The notes below the pieces were generated by a model. That model worked only from the letters and a program-made list of their open reading frames with translations. It was not told the DNA's origin and ran no database searches. The position numbers were made by a program, and so were the translations under genes. A stretch of DNA of 23,875 nucleotides, counting the filler, from an uncultured bacterium (GTDB lineage: Bacteria; UBA8481), in the NCBI GenBank assembly GCA_964499705.1. It is 3 parts of 3 records of this genome, joined end to end, with 100 filler letters (N's around TTAATTAATTAA, not from the genome) between each part and the next. Parts side by side here need not be neighbours in the genome. Positions count along the whole stretch, not along the records: positions 10,276 to 17,888 come from CAZCME010000042.1; 2 more parts are not named here. One strand, written 5' to 3'. How positions within the stretch are numbered: the stretch's first letter is position 1; each line of letters begins with the position of its first letter. This document shows positions 10,176 to 17,988 of this stretch, in pieces.

Positions 10176-10275
10176 NNNNNNNNNNNNNNNNNNNNNNNNN
10201 NNNNNNNNNNNNNNNNNNNTTAATTAATTAANNNNNNNNNNNNNNNNNNNNNNNNNNNNNNNNNNNNNNNNNNNN
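10176..10275. other. Artificial contig-joining linker (six-frame stop spacer)
   Basis: N44-TTAATTAATTAA-N44, identical to 17889-17988. Confidence 0.97.
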
Positions 10276-10381: not shown

Positions 10382-10588
10382 ATGCCTCCCGTGGATGTGC
10401 ACCACATTCTTGTCGATGGTCAGCCGCTCTGCAAGCTGGGCGAGTCGGAACCGTGGGCGAGATTCTTCACCTGCTACTACCAGTGGGAGCCGACCGTGCG
10501 GCAGGCGGCCATGAAGATCGCCGCCATGTCCTCCAACAAAGGCAGGCGTGTCGAGGTCATAAAGGGTCGCTGCGTCTGCGGCGGCTGA
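10382..10588 (+). CDS. Small Cys/His-containing hypothetical protein (68 aa) ending in CVCGG
   Basis: Strong GC3 codon bias. A candidate promoter TTGCTC-17-GAAAAT with extended TG ends 6 nt before the ATG, suggesting a leaderless transcript. Confidence 0.65.
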   Translation: MPPVDVHHILVDGQPLCKLGESEPWARFFTCYYQWEPTVRQAAMKIAAMSSNKGRRVEVIKGRCVCGG

Positions 10589-10615: not shown

Positions 10616-10891
10616 CTAAACTTTTCCTGAACCTCCGGATAACGCCGGAATGACGACCACCTCCGAGGCCGGATCCACCGGCGTATCCAGCGTCGCTTGC
10701 GTCGCGTCAACGAAGATGCGAATGTGCTCGCGGATCAGGGGACCGCTCGCGCAGATGCGGTTGCGCATCCCCGGCCACCGGATATCGAGCTCATCGATCA
10801 CGCCGCGCACTGTCGCCGCGTCGACATCCACCTCCCGGACAGCGCCGGGAAACAATTGTGTCAGAGACGACGGCAACACGACCCGGGCCAT
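10616..10891 (-). CDS. MoaD/ThiS-family ubiquitin-like protein (91 aa) with C-terminal GG-SGKV
   Basis: MARVVLPSSL...V.VDAATVRGVIDELD.RWPG...R.HIRIFVD......LDTPV...SEV.VIPALSGG. This is the C-terminal part of track ORF 10616..11353; GAGG SD before ATG 10891. Confidence 0.88.
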   Translation of the reverse strand: MARVVLPSSLTQLFPGAVREVDVDAATVRGVIDELDIRWPGMRNRICASGPLIREHIRIFVDATQATLDTPVDPASEVVVIPALSGGSGKV

Positions 10892-10901
10892 GACGGCGCC
10901 T

Positions 10902-12032
10902 CTAGACGACGGCCGCTCCGACGGAGAGAACAGGCGGCAGGTATCCGGCAACGACGTCCCAGGAATCTCCTTCGTCGGAACTGCCGAAGACTTCGCCGGT
11001 GTTGGTTCCGAAATAAACGCCGCCGGGCAGGAGCGTATCCACGGACATCGCGTCGCGCAGCACGCCGAAGAAAGCGCCGTTCTGCGGCAGCCCCTTCCCC
11101 TGGCGCGTCCAGGAGTCTCCTCCGTCGCGGCTGCGGAAGACGGCCGCCTTGCCTTCCGGCATGAAGCGGCCGTTCCCATCCAGCGGCACCACGTAGATGC
11201 TCCGATGATCGTGCGGCAGGACGGCCATCGGGAACCCGAAATCGCTCGGGAGCCCTGCGCTGATATCCTGCCAGTTTTCTCCGGCGTCCGTGCTACGATA
11301 GACACCGAAATGATTTTGCTGGTACAGCAGGTCGCGGCCTTCGCGCGGAGCAATTGCGCTCACGACATGATGCACGCAACCGCTTACTTCGTTGTCCTTG
11401 TTGACGACGTCGAAGTTGCGCGTGTTGCGGTTGCGAGGCTCCCACGTTTTTCCGCCGTCGGCCGTGTAGAAGAGACCGGCCGCCGAAGTCCCGGCCCAGA
11501 TCCTGTCGGGATCGTCCGGATGAACGACGATCGAATGGAGACAGAGACCTCCATTGCCGCCGTTCCAGCTCGGGCAGGATGGATGCTCGCGGAGCCCCGC
11601 GACATGTTTCCATGTGACTCCGCCGTCCGTGCTCTTGAAGAGCCCGGCGGGTTCCACGCCGGCATAGAGAATGCCGTGCGCGGGTTCGATGTGCCACACC
11701 TTCTCGATCTTCGGCCCGCCCTCGCCGTAGGTCAATCCTTCGGCCGAGTGCGTCCAGGTTTCCCCCGCGTCGGGACTCTTCCAGATTTCCGTCGGCACGT
11801 CCTTTCCGTACAGCATCGTTCCATCGGGCGCCATCCCGACAAAGATCCCGTGACCGCCGCCGGCGCCGGTCGCGGCGAGAACACACTTCGTCGCGGGATC
11901 GTATGCCATGTGCATCGTCCTGCGCCCCTCGCAGAACGGCCCCTTCACATTCCATTTTTTTCGCGCGACATCGCTCTCCATGATGAACGCGCCCTTGTCC
12001 GTTCCCACCAGCACCAGCACTTTCGATCCCAT
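10902..12032 (-). CDS. Asp-box (BNR/WD40-YVTN) beta-propeller protein, paralog 2
   Basis: VLVGTDKGAF; six S/T-x-D-x-G-x-x-W Asp-boxes; GGLCLH, GCVH, QQNH. Start reassigned to ATG 12032 (GGGAG SD). Confidence 0.88.
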   Translation of the reverse strand: MGSKVLVLVGTDKGAFIMESDVARKKWNVKGPFCEGRRTMHMAYDPATKCVLAATGAGGGHGIFVGMAPDGTMLYGKDVPTEIWKSPDAGETWTHSAEGLTYGEGGPKIEKVWHIEPAHGILYAGVEPAGLFKSTDGGVTWKHVAGLREHPSCPSWNGGNGGLCLHSIVVHPDDPDRIWAGTSAAGLFYTADGGKTWEPRNRNTRNFDVVNKDNEVSGCVHHVVSAIAPREGRDLLYQQNHFGVYRSTDAGENWQDISAGLPSDFGFPMAVLPHDHRSIYVVPLDGNGRFMPEGKAAVFRSRDGGDSWTRQGKGLPQNGAFFGVLRDAMSVDTLLPGGVYFGTNTGEVFGSSDEGDSWDVVAGYLPPVLSVGAAVV

Positions 12033-12054
12033 GAGTCCGCTCCCTTTCCAATGT

Positions 12055-12068
12055 GTGACTATAGTCAC
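12055..12068. promoter_or_regulatory. Perfect 14-bp palindrome GTGACTATAGTCAC between the two propeller genes
   Basis: Seen directly in the 38-bp intergenic gap; function is inferred only. Confidence 0.35.
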
Positions 12069-12070
12069 CC

Positions 12071-13180
12071 TTATGATATCTGATCGACAGCGATCGAGTA
12101 AATGGGAGGAAGGCGAAAGGGCATCTCTTTCCACAGGTCTCCTTCATCGATGCTCCAATACACCTGACCGGTTTTTGTTCCGACATAGACTCCCGCGGGA
12201 TCCAGCGCGTCCAACGCTAGCGCGCCTCGCAGGACGCTGAGCGAAGCGCGATCCTGCGGCAGTCCCCGGGAAAGCGCTTGCCAGTGCGCGCCGGCATCGC
12301 GGCTCCGCCAGACAGCCATCCTGCCGCCCGGAACGATTCGTCGCCCCGGCTGATCGCTCTCCAGCGGCACCACGTACAGTGTCTCCGGAAGTCGAGGATG
12401 AACCGCCAAAGGAAAACCGAATCGCGACGGCAGACCGGCGCTGATGTCACGCCATGAAACTCCGCCGTCGTCCGAGCGATAAACTCCGTCATGATTCCGC
12501 TGATAAAGCCGGGGATCAAGGTCTCTTCCTTGAGCGTCCGCAAGCGCCAGAGCATGCACGCAGGGATGGAGCATGGGATGGAGCGGGTCATCCGGGACGG
12601 CGTCGCATCGATTCCAGGTTCGTCCCTCATCCCCGGTATGAAAGACGCCTCCCGATGAAATACCCACCCATATACGCAACGGATCGATCGGATGAGGGAC
12701 GATCGCATGAAGGCACATACCGCCCGCGGTCGCGCGCCATGCGGACCGGGAAGGATGCGCGCGCAGTCCGGCGACATGGATCCAGGAATCGCCATCGTCC
12801 TCGCTGCGAAAAAGCCCGGCCGGCTCAACTCCGGCATAAAGCACACGACGACCGGAGGAATCGACCGAGGGAGTCACACACCAGATCTGCCTGATCTCCG
12901 GCCCCTCATCGCCATAGGTAAGACCTTCGCTCGAATGCGTCCACGTCGCGCCCAGGTCCCGGCTTCGCCACACAGCCGCCCCGTACCAGTTGCTTGCTCC
13001 TCCCGCAAAAATGGTCGGAACGGTGGTCTCGGGACCACACGGGAACGGATAAAGTGAGGCATTCAAAATCGCCCACGTGCCGCTGATCAACGGCCCGCGA
13101 ATTTCCCACGATTCGCGACGCGCATCGCTCTCGGCGACGAACAACCCCTTTCTGGTGCCCAGCAGCAGAATGACTTTCAC
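12071..13180 (-). CDS. Asp-box beta-propeller protein, paralog 1
   Basis: LLLGTRKGLF; Asp-boxes; GGMCLH, PCVH, QRNH; shares HSxEGLTYG, YAGVEPAGLF and DISAGLPSxFGFP with paralog 2. GTG start. Confidence 0.88.
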   Translation of the reverse strand: MKVILLLGTRKGLFVAESDARRESWEIRGPLISGTWAILNASLYPFPCGPETTVPTIFAGGASNWYGAAVWRSRDLGATWTHSSEGLTYGDEGPEIRQIWCVTPSVDSSGRRVLYAGVEPAGLFRSEDDGDSWIHVAGLRAHPSRSAWRATAGGMCLHAIVPHPIDPLRIWVGISSGGVFHTGDEGRTWNRCDAVPDDPLHPMLHPCVHALALADAQGRDLDPRLYQRNHDGVYRSDDGGVSWRDISAGLPSRFGFPLAVHPRLPETLYVVPLESDQPGRRIVPGGRMAVWRSRDAGAHWQALSRGLPQDRASLSVLRGALALDALDPAGVYVGTKTGQVYWSIDEGDLWKEMPFRLPPIYSIAVDQIS

Positions 13181-13307
13181 GGATTGATCCTATCCATGAA
13201 GCGCGGAGAAATAAATCTCCACTTGGCCCGCGATCGCGACACCGGTGCCTATTCCAGGGAGCGAAGTTTGTTGCGAAATGTACCCGTATGATAGGCTGCG
13301 ATTTCCC

Positions 13308-13925
13308 ATGAACGCGCGCGTGATGCTCTTTACCAGATACCCGGTTCCCGGAGCGACCAAGACACGGCTCATTCCTACCCTGGGCGCGGAAGGAGCGGCT
13401 CAACTTCATCGCGAACTGACCGAGCGGATAGCGACCTGCATGCAATCGCCCGTGCTGTCGGACATCTCCATGGAGGTTTGCTACACGGGCGGAAGCCGGG
13501 ACGAGATGGAAGAATGGCTGGGGCCCCGTTTCACATATCGCGCTCAATGCGAAGGCGATCTGGGCGATCGCCTCCGTGACGCGTTTTCAGCAGCATTTCT
13601 CGAAGGACACCGCGTCGCGATCGCCATCGGATCGGATGTTCCCGGCATCACGCCGAAAATATTCCGCCACGCCGTGGACCGGCTGAAATTCCTCGACGCC
13701 ATCATCGGTCCGGCCTCCGACGGCGGATACTATCTCATCGGGATGAACCGGTTCCTTCCCGAGCTCTTCGATGAAATCGCGTGGGGGACGGAAACCGTCT
13801 TCAAGGAGACGATGAGCCGTGTCTCCTCAAGCTCGCTGACGCACGAGGTGCTGGAGGAATTGTCGGACGTGGATCGCCCTGAGGACCTGGACCTGGTTCA
13901 GGATATGATGCTGAGGACCAGTTGA
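13308..13925 (+). CDS. TIGR04282/DUF2064 family glycosyltransferase-like protein
   Basis: FTRYPVPGATKTRL, Q.EGDLGDRL..AF, IGSD.P, GPASDGGYYLIG, IAWGT, L.DVD.PEDL. Start is probably ATG 13308. Confidence 0.9.
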   Translation: MNARVMLFTRYPVPGATKTRLIPTLGAEGAAQLHRELTERIATCMQSPVLSDISMEVCYTGGSRDEMEEWLGPRFTYRAQCEGDLGDRLRDAFSAAFLEGHRVAIAIGSDVPGITPKIFRHAVDRLKFLDAIIGPASDGGYYLIGMNRFLPELFDEIAWGTETVFKETMSRVSSSSLTHEVLEELSDVDRPEDLDLVQDMMLRTS

Positions 13926-14567: not shown

Positions 14568-16568
14568 ATGGATCACAAGATGAGTGATTCGGCATCCTCC
14601 CGCGCATGGTACGAATGTGCTATTCCCGAATTCATCGCGACGAAACCGGAGGAGATCCTCGGCGTTCTGACCGCCGGAAGCGATTTCGCCGTAACCACCG
14701 AGCAAAGGAACGCTTGGCTTTACGAGACCCTGTTTCTACGGGATCGGCTTGATGGCTTCGATGGCAGAATATGCCTCGAATTCAACATCCCACGCATGGG
14801 CCGGCGCATCGACGCGGTATTACTAATTCAAGACATTGTCTTCGCTCTCGAGTTCAAGGTTGGCGAAACGAATTATGAACTTGCGGACTTGAATCAGGTC
14901 TGGGACTACGCACTCGACCTCAAGAATTTTCACAGGGCGAGTCATAGTGCCACGATCGTTCCGATCCTCATCGCGACTGCAGCGATGCATCCATTGCCCG
15001 GAGAATTAAGGACTGATGCGGATGGGGTGTACCGTCCTTCAGGCACAGATCCGACTGGATTCCGGGACCTGTTGGCCAAGGCCCTGGCCGTGATCCCGTC
15101 CGGCAAGATTGAGCCACGTGAGTGGTCAAGGTCCTCTTATCTCCCGACGCCGACCATCATCGAAGCGGCTCGATCGCTTTACGCCCGACATTCGGTCGAA
15201 GAGATCGCGCGATCCGACGCCGGCGCACGGAACCTGGCCGTCACATCACGGCGCGTGGAGGAACTCGCTGATCGAGCGAAGAACGCCGGAGCAAAGGTGA
15301 TCTGCTTCGTCACAGGAGTTCCGGGCGCGGGCAAGACGCTTGTCGGTCTCAATGTGGCGACGCGGAACAGGGACGACAGAAAGCCGACTCATGCGGTTTT
15401 TCTTTCAGGAAACGGTCCGCTCGTTCAGGTCTTGAGCGAGGCGTTGGCGCGTGATGAAGTTTCGCGCGCCAAGGCGCGCGGAGAGAATGTGCGCAAGGGA
15501 AAAGCGCGCAACGCGATTCGCGCCTTCATTCAGAACGTGCATCACTTCCGCGACGAGGGACTCGTCAATGGAGGACCTCCGGCGGATCATGTCGTGATTT
15601 TCGACGAAGCCCAACGCGCATGGAACCTCCGTATGACGGCGAACTTCATGAAACAGAAGAAAGGCATGCCCGGCTTCGACAAGTCCGAACCGGAATTTCT
15701 CATATCGTACATGGACAGGCATGTCGATTGGGCCCTCGTCACCTGCCTTGTCGGAGGCGGCCAGGAGATCAATACAGGGGAAGCCGGTATCGAGGCATGG
15801 GTCGAGGCCATCTCATTGCATTTCCCCGAGTGGGAAATGCACATCTCTTCACGCTTGACCGACAGCGAATACGGCGCCGGCCGCGTCCTTGATTTAGTTC
15901 AAAAGCGTCCCCATACCTTTTTCGATGACGACCTGCATCTGGCGGTCTCGAGGCGATCGTTTCGAGCGGAAAACGTGTCCGACTTCATCAAGGCGGTGCT
16001 CGACTGCGAAGTGGGGCGGGCAAAATCCCACCTGCAAGTGATGCGAAATCGCTATCCGATCGTGGTGACAAGAGATCTCGATCTCGCGAAACGATGGGTA
16101 CGCAACAGCGCAAGGGGCACCGAGCGAATCGGCCTGGTCGCGTCCTCCAAAGCGCAGCGACTCAGACCGCACGCGATCGACGTGCGCGTGAAGGTGGATC
16201 CCGTGCATTGGTTTCTCAACGATCGCGACGACGTCCGGTCGAGTTACTTCCTCGAGGACGCCGCGACCGAGTTCCAGGTGCAGGGGCTGGAACTGGATTG
16301 GGCCTGCGTGACATGGGACGGCGACCTGCGGCGTTCAGAAACCGGATGGAGTTTCCATGATTTTCGCGGCGACCGATGGATCAACGTGAATAACAGGGAG
16401 AACCGGGAATATCTGCGAAATGCGTATCGCGTGCTTCTGACACGCGCGAGGCAGGGCATGGCCATCTTCGTGCCGAAAGGCGACGTATCTGATCTGACCC
16501 GCCCTCCCGAATATTACGACACCACGTTTGAATATCTGGCTGAAATCGGACTGCCGGTGCTGGCGTGA
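14568..16568 (+). CDS. DUF2075 (Schlafen group-3-like SF1 helicase) with an N-terminal PD-(D/E)xK-like nuclease domain
   Basis: EF.IPRMGRRID.V...LEFK..QV.DYALDLKNFH; Walker A GVPGAGKT; Walker B IFDEAQR; GGGQEI; QGLELD; YRVLLTRARQG. Confidence 0.88.
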   Translation: MDHKMSDSASSRAWYECAIPEFIATKPEEILGVLTAGSDFAVTTEQRNAWLYETLFLRDRLDGFDGRICLEFNIPRMGRRIDAVLLIQDIVFALEFKVGETNYELADLNQVWDYALDLKNFHRASHSATIVPILIATAAMHPLPGELRTDADGVYRPSGTDPTGFRDLLAKALAVIPSGKIEPREWSRSSYLPTPTIIEAARSLYARHSVEEIARSDAGARNLAVTSRRVEELADRAKNAGAKVICFVTGVPGAGKTLVGLNVATRNRDDRKPTHAVFLSGNGPLVQVLSEALARDEVSRAKARGENVRKGKARNAIRAFIQNVHHFRDEGLVNGGPPADHVVIFDEAQRAWNLRMTANFMKQKKGMPGFDKSEPEFLISYMDRHVDWALVTCLVGGGQEINTGEAGIEAWVEAISLHFPEWEMHISSRLTDSEYGAGRVLDLVQKRPHTFFDDDLHLAVSRRSFRAENVSDFIKAVLDCEVGRAKSHLQVMRNRYPIVVTRDLDLAKRWVRNSARGTERIGLVASSKAQRLRPHAIDVRVKVDPVHWFLNDRDDVRSSYFLEDAATEFQVQGLELDWACVTWDGDLRRSETGWSFHDFRGDRWINVNNRENREYLRNAYRVLLTRARQGMAIFVPKGDVSDLTRPPEYYDTTFEYLAEIGLPVLA

Positions 16569-17888: not shown

Positions 17889-17988
17889 NNNNNNNNNNNN
17901 NNNNNNNNNNNNNNNNNNNNNNNNNNNNNNNNTTAATTAATTAANNNNNNNNNNNNNNNNNNNNNNNNNNNNNNNNNNNNNNNNNNNN
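17889..17988. other. Artificial contig-joining linker
   Basis: N44-TTAATTAATTAA-N44. Confidence 0.97.

Follow-up and report, generated by a model that had tools for sequence, protein, structure and literature searches.

We analyzed a 23,875-nucleotide stretch of DNA from an uncultured bacterium (here, the window), in which three genes at positions 10616 to 13180 encode two paralogous Asp-box β-propellers (propA and propB) and a ubiquitin-like (Ubl) protein of the ThiS/MoaD family. We found that the propeller and the Ubl are encoded side by side across many genomes and occur as natural fusions, that the Ubl resembles the sulfur carrier CysO, and that a conserved cysteine of the propeller apparently alternates with selenocysteine in relatives. 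We read the propeller as a putative acceptor enzyme for a Ubl thiocarboxylate because the arrangement, a carrier with a Gly-Gly (GG) end encoded beside its acceptor and an E1 encoded elsewhere, matches that of MoaD-MoaE and CysO-CysM. The proposal that the three genes encode a hitherto undescribed type of module, a sulfur carrier with its acceptor enzyme, is, in our judgment, evenly balanced between right and wrong.

Linkage of the propeller and the ubiquitin-like protein

We examined the 80 best loci, one genome per species, which came from Chloroflexota, Alphaproteobacteria, and one Verrucomicrobiae metagenome-assembled genome. A ThiS-like open reading frame (ORF) lay directly downstream of the propeller gene, on the same strand, in 76 of the 80; at one of the four other loci (L036), the sequence is cut at the end of the propeller. 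We also sampled 401 Chloroflexota genomes and found a match to the propeller in 190 at an E value of up to 1e-15 (the positives in this tally include four unpublished genomes, G047, G235, G153, and G352, which were used for no other result). Thirty loci were returned from this sample, and a Ubl was present in all 18 from the close subfamily and in 8 of 12 from a more distant one, where its C terminus is AGG. The gene order is not fixed. All three records from Burkholderia, Ralstonia solanacearum, and Pseudomonas aeruginosa, whose propellers are about 30% identical to those of the window, have a gene annotated as "MoaD/ThiS family protein" directly upstream of the propeller gene, and the order is likewise reversed at L098, in a genome of the window's own family. 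In addition, two natural fusions (P0144 and P0184) join a ThiS domain ending in SGG, through a short linker, to a propeller in a single protein. Because the linkage outlasts a change in gene order and also occurs as a fusion, we regard this as strong evidence that the propeller and the Ubl work together. The initial annotation of this DNA had named a survey of gene neighborhoods as a check on its proposed module, and the survey identifies propeller plus Ubl as a conserved unit.

The Ubl gene (10616 to 10891, minus strand; 91 amino acids [aa]) matches the Pfam ThiS profile (PF02597) with 31.1 bits against a cut-off of 22.5 (E value, 3.6e-7; profile positions 3 to 76 of 76), and its NCBIfam matches to SAMP1 and MoaD are both below cut-off. 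A profile built on the Ubl was closest to 4n6e_B ("ThiS/MoaD family protein"; E value, 3.6e-13), followed by Mycobacterium tuberculosis CysO (3dwg_C; E value, 4.5e-12) and then by SAMP1 and MoaD. As its nearest matches are 4n6e_B and CysO, the Ubl looks like a CysO-type sulfur carrier. Two of the 76 Ubls are cut by a contig end; among the 74 complete Ubls, the C terminus is exactly GG in 67 and extended by 1 to 18 residues in 5. In the window, Gly86-Gly87 (10631 to 10636) is followed by a four-residue SGKV tail (10619 to 10630) and then the stop codon, an ending similar in kind to that of L100 (GG-DGTGR) and a few others. The last gene had been called MoaD/ThiS-like on first inspection; the above-cut-off ThiS match supports that assignment, with the correction that the protein ends in GG-SGKV, not in GG. 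Removal of the tail would need a peptidase. The obvious candidate is a JAB peptidase on another contig of the same genome (C37; locus L088, 1111 to 3690, minus strand), which encodes in a row a pyridoxal phosphate (PLP)-dependent enzyme, this peptidase, and a 470-aa ThiS-ThiF-Rhodanese fusion. By its predicted proteins, this cluster is CysM/Mec+/CysO-MoeZ-like, with the carrier fused to its own E1. The window's genome has five ThiS-family genes and two E1s in all. A complex prediction for propB with the Ubl scored 0.00, which counts neither for nor against binding.

The propA gene (12071 to 13180, minus strand; 369 aa) and the propB gene (10902 to 12032, minus strand; 376 aa) encode proteins that are 47% identical (E value, 1e-109). 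Both match Sortilin-Vps10 (the best domain match, 52 bits) and BNR/Asp-box in Pfam. A profile of 12 family members matched one solved structure, 3b7f, with an E value of 1.1e-98 over 349 profile positions. Consistently with this, the AlphaFold2 model of propB, a propeller of the mainstream 3b7f type (predicted local distance difference test [pLDDT], 93.7), has the strand pattern of seven blades and aligns with 3b7f in Foldseek (TM, 0.87/0.89; root mean square deviation, 2.8 Å; 36% identity). The next fold matches are single propellers of GH74 enzymes, DAIP, Ycf48, and sortilin. The entry 3b7f is a structural-genomics structure from Ralstonia eutropha JMP134 (Reut_B4987/YP_299179.1) titled "putative glycosyl hydrolase with BNR repeats"; in the sections of PMC2716378 that treat it, it is placed in a functionally uncharacterized "YP_299179.1 family" with seven blades and an open tunnel of 9 by 11 Å. 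The propA protein is the more divergent paralog, a cytoplasmic seven-bladed Asp-box propeller. The absence of a signal peptide from both propellers, claimed in the initial annotation, agrees with the AlphaFold2 model, in which residues 5 to 11 already form a propeller strand.

Relatives carry database names such as "sialidase family protein," "exo-alpha-sialidase," and "PSII stability factor-like." The sialidase profile BNR_2 scored 24.6 and 19.7 bits for the two propellers, below the Pfam cut-off of 31.4 in both, so the "sialidase" and "PSII stability factor-like" labels rest on the Asp-boxes alone. This had been suspected for "sialidase" from the start, and the nearest structure, 3b7f, has no assigned function. 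GH33 enzymes have 6 blades and GH74 enzymes 7+7, according to the same sections of PMC2716378. Profile score and blade count set propA and propB apart from GH33, and they are not GH33 sialidases. We also considered and rejected a GH74 xyloglucanase, in which two tandem seven-bladed propellers, about 700 to 790 aa in all, build the cleft: the window proteins are single domains, and their matches span one GH74 propeller only.

The family is large. More than 6000 proteins were scored in a collection clustered at 90%, and 4462 representatives, multidomain BNR proteins included, matched at an E value of up to 1e-30 in a collection clustered at 50%. We found members in soil Chloroflexota, in Alpha-, Beta-, and Gammaproteobacteria (P. 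aeruginosa and Ralstonia included), and in Actinomycetota; in the phylum of the window organism, the family is present in two of five genomes of the GTDB set, a sample too small for any conclusion. The nearest propeller relative, L008, is labeled Chloroflexota. In one 704-aa representative (P0140), a propeller of the family is preceded by a fused Ser/Thr protein kinase domain.

Only one of the 80 loci, L008, has two propellers; adjacent pairs also occur in a few Chloroflexota genomes (G146 and G060). By identity, the counterpart of propA is L008_b (53%) and that of propB is L008_a (59.6%), and the gene order differs between the window and L008. This pairing places the duplication before the split of the two organisms. 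L008_b has lost the CVH and NH motifs, so at least one lineage does not need the second copy for the chemistry; propA of the window has every core residue. The suggestion that the duplicated propellers act as a heterodimer found no support, given a single two-propeller locus in 80 in which the propA-type copy lacks CVH and NH.

The Cys/His site and its probable selenocysteine forms

Both propellers were initially described as sharing GG(L/M)CLH, CVH, and Q(Q/R)NH motifs, and we found all three in each. To count conservation, we used the 87 single-domain representatives (300 to 480 aa) among 150 listed at 50% clustering. With propB numbering, H166 is present in 80, H221 in 78, Q239 in 77, H241 in 76, and R326 in 76. 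C219 is present in 67, and 4 have Asp at this position. C164, the cysteine of GGxCLH, occurs in 42 of the 87, which indicates that this first cysteine is not essential; H143 occurs in 5. Judged by conservation, the core is H166, C219-x-H221, Q239, and H241. At position 164, 3b7f has Lys and the Burkholderia, Ralstonia, and Pseudomonas proteins have Gly. In the window, the propB residues fall within 11307 to 11543 (minus strand), with C164-L-H166 at 11535 to 11543, C219-V-H221 at 11370 to 11378, and N240-H241 at 11310 to 11315; propA keeps the corresponding CLH (residues 156 to 158), CVH (207 to 209), and NH (229 to 230).

In the propB model, strand 1 begins with C164 and H166 in blade 4, with C219 and H221 in blade 5, and with F265-G-F267 in blade 6. 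H241 is at the end of strand 2 in blade 5, and R326 comes before strand 1 in blade 7. In Asp-box propellers, the bottom face is marked by the Asp-box loops, which connect strand 3 to strand 4 (PMC2716378). Since these loops mark the bottom, we infer from the strand topology that the conserved residues face the top side and surround the upper entrance of the central tunnel.

We searched a metagenome collection for genes in which TGA replaces the Cys codon of CVH and a YQQNH-type motif follows; the Cys version of the same pattern recovers 100 of 112 loci. The TGA pattern returned nine contigs. All nine encode members of the family (E values, 1e-77 to 1e-125), and the TGA falls exactly in the C219 column in each. 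With U for the TGA codon, the contexts are EVGHUVHR (n = 5), (T/G)SUVHK (n = 3), and VGAUVHK (n = 1). The reading frame stays open past the TGA for 154 to 167 codons, to the normal C terminus, in the eight uncut contigs, and for 67 codons in L141, which is cut by the end of its record. Among the five EVGHUVHR contigs (L135 to L139), codon differences 3' of the TGA are mostly synonymous (e.g., 53 versus 6 and 33 versus 2), which argues that the region after the TGA is translated and under selection. A Ubl gene lies downstream in seven of the nine contigs. These data indicate that the in-frame TGA at position 219 is read as selenocysteine in relatives; the window's own propeller genes have the Cys codons TGC and TGT, and the selenocysteine forms are confined to relatives.

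We also looked for a selenocysteine insertion sequence (SECIS), for which support was weaker. In eight of the nine contigs, folding predicts a hairpin with a GGUC or GG(C/U) loop 18 to 25 nucleotides (nt) past the UGA; the Cys forms of the same subfamily have none. The region after the UGA did not exceed its counterpart in Cys forms in predicted stability (P = 0.15); alifold detected no covariation in a set of five near-identical sequences, and an Rfam search gave no relevant match. As side observations, the first cysteine is replaced by Gly (GGMGLH) in the L135 to L139 selenocysteine forms, the Cys forms of that subfamily keep GGMCLH, and the other two selenocysteine groups (L140 to L143) retain the first cysteine.

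Because TGA replaces the cysteine codon at position 219, C219 would be a catalytic or metal-binding residue. No other finding speaks as strongly for a reactive site as the selenocysteine alternation, by which the Cys/His site is probably catalytic. The first description of this DNA held that the conserved Cys and His residues form a site; this is supported for C219, with its TGA in nine contigs, and for the conserved His core, and not for the first cysteine, which is variable.

Locus layout and neighboring genes

The three genes lie in the same direction on the minus strand in the order propA, propB, Ubl. We placed the propB start at the ATG at 12032, which has GGAAAGGGAG 7 nt upstream and matches the start of homologs; the Ubl start is 10 nt past the propB stop. 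The gene calls agree with the compact three-gene operon that was first proposed. Within the 38-nt spacer between propA and propB, just 5' of the propB ribosome-binding site, is a perfect 14-nt palindrome, GTGACTATAGTCAC (12055 to 12068), possibly an operator or a small RNA hairpin that uncouples propA and propB.

The window is a pseudo-molecule of three contigs joined at 10176 to 10275 and 17889 to 17988. The joints are runs of N flanking TTAATTAATTAA linkers, and the linkers put a stop in all six frames. The operon begins 340 nt from the start of its 7.6-kb contig. With the contig joint between them, the pilus and type II secretion genes left of 10176 are not neighbors of the operon, nor are the EF-Tu fragment and the radical SAM gene to the right of the second joint. 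On the operon's own contig, a 68-aa ORF (10382 to 10588, plus strand) converges on the Ubl gene and ends in CVCGG; it had no match in Pfam or NCBIfam and no usable ESM Atlas neighbor. Divergent from propA across a 64-nt gap is a DUF2064/TIGR04282 "arsenosugar biosynthesis glycosyltransferase"-type gene (13245 to 13925, plus strand), a type that was absent beside the propeller-Ubl pair among the neighbors scanned in other loci. Farther along, a gene for a 666-aa protein (14568 to 16568, plus strand), in which Pfam recognizes a Schlafen group 3 helicase domain (PF09848; E value, 3e-75), is followed by a nucleotidyltransferase-domain gene; the two may be a defense-type pair on the same small contig.

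We found no third conserved gene when all ORFs of the 80 loci were clustered against each other; the largest other cluster was a scattered ABC ATPase, at 17 of 80 loci. With MoaD-MoaE-like genes within 5 kb at only 5 of 80, we rejected a fixed third partner. When the two E1s and the JAB of the window's genome were used as phmmer queries, none of the 6059 ORFs at the 80 loci matched. Similarly, Pfam searches of 138 immediate neighbors (71 upstream and 67 downstream) gave no E1, JAB, MoaE, or ThiG, with E2-like proteins not specifically searched, and no linked molybdopterin genes or recurring carbohydrate-use genes. The absence of an adjacent E1 or JAB had been pointed out for the window, where it is less informative with the operon 340 nt from the contig start; across the 80 loci, it holds. 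Among the upstream neighbors, MarR (7), glyoxalase/VOC (7), and DUF1579 (3) recur, and among the downstream neighbors, YCII, DinB, AHSA1, and DUF1905-OmdA.

Proposed mechanism, competing explanations, and known systems

According to our model, the Ubl would be a CysO-like carrier that loses SGKV by cleavage behind Gly-Gly, for which the JAB peptidase encoded on contig C37 is a plausible agent. Its C terminus would then be adenylated and thiocarboxylated in trans by the genome's MoeZ-type E1-rhodanese. The carrier would dock on the top face of the propeller, where its flexible tail could reach the tunnel entrance lined by H166, C219-x-H221, Q239, H241, R289, R326, and F265/F267. C219, or selenocysteine in some relatives, might accept the sulfur as an acyl-disulfide or persulfide; alternatively, C219 and the three histidines might be ligands of a metal that binds the thiocarboxylate sulfur. 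The sulfur would finally be handed to a small-molecule or protein substrate. The propeller would thereby take the role that MoaE, ThiG, CysM, BexX, or TtuA plays for its carrier, and propA would be a lineage-specific second acceptor copy. More broadly, 3b7f-type propellers and CysO-like Ubls may constitute a widespread, undescribed system of sulfur/selenium trafficking or redox, in which the propeller would define both a novel class of enzyme that depends on a Ubl thiocarboxylate and a novel family of selenoproteins, with a Cys/Sec-His3 site at the tunnel mouth that receives the carrier tail. We put this wider proposal forward tentatively, with the odds somewhat against it.

Several observations weigh against the acceptor-enzyme reading. 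Three of the 80 loci (L028, L053, and L060) have no Ubl despite room for one, and homologs on Fuscovulum and Streptomyces plasmids keep the CVH, H, and NH residues with no Ubl within 5 kb. A terminal GG is missing from two of the 74 complete Ubls, and the GG-SGKV protein of the window and the fusion proteins have a GG that only processing would free. Position 219 is Asp in the clade of 3b7f and the Burkholderia, Ralstonia, and Pseudomonas proteins, which is still Ubl linked. Asp219 cannot carry a persulfide, which favors a metal-ligand or acid/base role at this position or else a different chemistry in that clade. A scan of the propellers against Pfam and NCBIfam at E values of up to 1 showed no likeness to MoaE, ThiG, CysM/PLP, or TtuA. 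Finally, the neighboring genes have a loose stress/detoxification flavor and give no pathway and no substrate clue.

Some of these observations fit a second explanation, in which the propeller would be a metalloenzyme or a selenol/thiol-redox enzyme (for example, an oxidoreductase or lyase) whose substrate is a small molecule related to stress, and the Ubl would donate no sulfur but serve as a noncovalent subunit, chaperone, or regulator. Alternation of Cys, Sec, and Asp at one position beside three conserved His residues is typical of metal ligands and suits a metal site no less than it suits a carrier of persulfide. The neighbors are often small stress/detoxification proteins and regulators, two Ubl-less homologs keep the site, and natural selenoproteins are, to our knowledge, nearly all redox enzymes. 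A structural Ubl, however, need not keep a free terminal GG, yet 67 of 74 do, and the Ubl is nearest to true sulfur carriers. We consider this explanation unlikely.

The requirement for cleavage after GG in the window's Ubl, in 5 of 74 relatives, and in the P0144 and P0184 fusions would also suit a Ubl that serves as a protein tag. The propeller would then cleave behind GG as a Cys-His peptidase or isopeptidase, to mature GG-SGKV and the fusion proteins or to strip off conjugates, or else be an E2-like acceptor in a thio- or seleno-ester with the Ubl, and C219, the several His residues, Q239, and N240 do resemble a Cys-His-Gln/Asn protease set, by resemblance only. However, 67 of 74 Ubls need no processing. 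A cysteine protease is at odds with Asp219 throughout a Ubl-linked clade and with selenocysteine elsewhere, linked E1 or E2 genes are absent (E2-like proteins were not specifically searched), and a JAB is already encoded next to an E1 in this genome. We therefore regard a tagging role as distinctly unlikely. That propA and propB are conventional glycoside hydrolases, of the sialidase or GH74-like kind, with the Ubl as an unrelated neighbor, as "sialidase family protein" and "exo-alpha-sialidase" in the databases and the weak profile and fold matches to single GH74 propellers would have it, is hardly credible, given BNR_2 scores under the cut-off, single seven-bladed domains with no signal peptide, no recurring carbohydrate-use genes, and a Ubl linkage at 76 of 80 loci that outlasts a change of order and includes fusions.

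A sulfur-carrier Ubl with a partner enzyme is a known kind of system; a propeller as the partner is new. We found no paper that links this propeller family to ThiS/MoaD or names it as a selenoprotein, in a search whose scope excluded subscription journals and supplements. In term searches of the two main comparative papers on prokaryotic Ubls (PMC1779556 and PMC1949818), "propeller," "sialidase," and "BNR" appear in no relevant passage. The COG4447 literature concerns a different, Ycf48-like subfamily with RND exporters, and we set it aside.

The closest parallels to the acceptor-enzyme reading are 3dwg and 4n6e, which, beyond their molecule names, we take to be the CysO-CysM and CysO-BexX pairs. 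The window's system is like these in its best carrier profile match, the GG end of most Ubls of its relatives, a MoeZ-type E1 encoded elsewhere, and an available JAB peptidase; unlike them, its partner is an Asp-box propeller with no sequence likeness to a PLP or ThiG-like enzyme. Molybdopterin synthase (MoaD-MoaE) likewise has a GG carrier gene beside an acceptor gene with the E1 in trans, and fused MoaD-MoaE forms exist; natural carrier-acceptor fusions would need a cut after GG. In contrast to that system, there is no MoaE domain here, the MoaD models match below cut-off, and no molybdopterin genes are linked. Sortilin Vps10 and Ycf48 are Asp-box propellers that hold peptide tails, and sortilin-peptide complexes and Ycf48 are among the fold matches. 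Sortilin binds a peptide C-terminal carboxylate in its tunnel; it differs in being 10-bladed, extracellular, and nonenzymatic, and we know of no Cys/His core in it. The in-frame TGA at a conserved Cys and the purifying selection downstream of it recall bacterial Cys/Sec selenoproteins, such as formate dehydrogenase and rhodanese-like sulfurtransferases, from which the propellers differ in their fold and Ubl partner and in that the window's own genes encode Cys. The structure 3b7f belongs to the same family and fold as the window proteins, with Lys and Asp at the positions of C164 and C219; having no assigned function, it explains nothing.

The acceptor enzymes fed by known sulfur-carrier Ubls are MoaE, ThiG, CysM, MetY-type enzymes, BexX, and TtuA. 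If our reading is true, the propeller would be a seventh, structurally unrelated acceptor and would lead to an unknown thio-metabolite, cofactor, or repair reaction. It would also bear on a family that has had a crystal structure since 2007 with no function assigned and that is routinely misannotated as sialidase. Because the Cys/Sec alternation names the residue to mutate, the question is directly testable.

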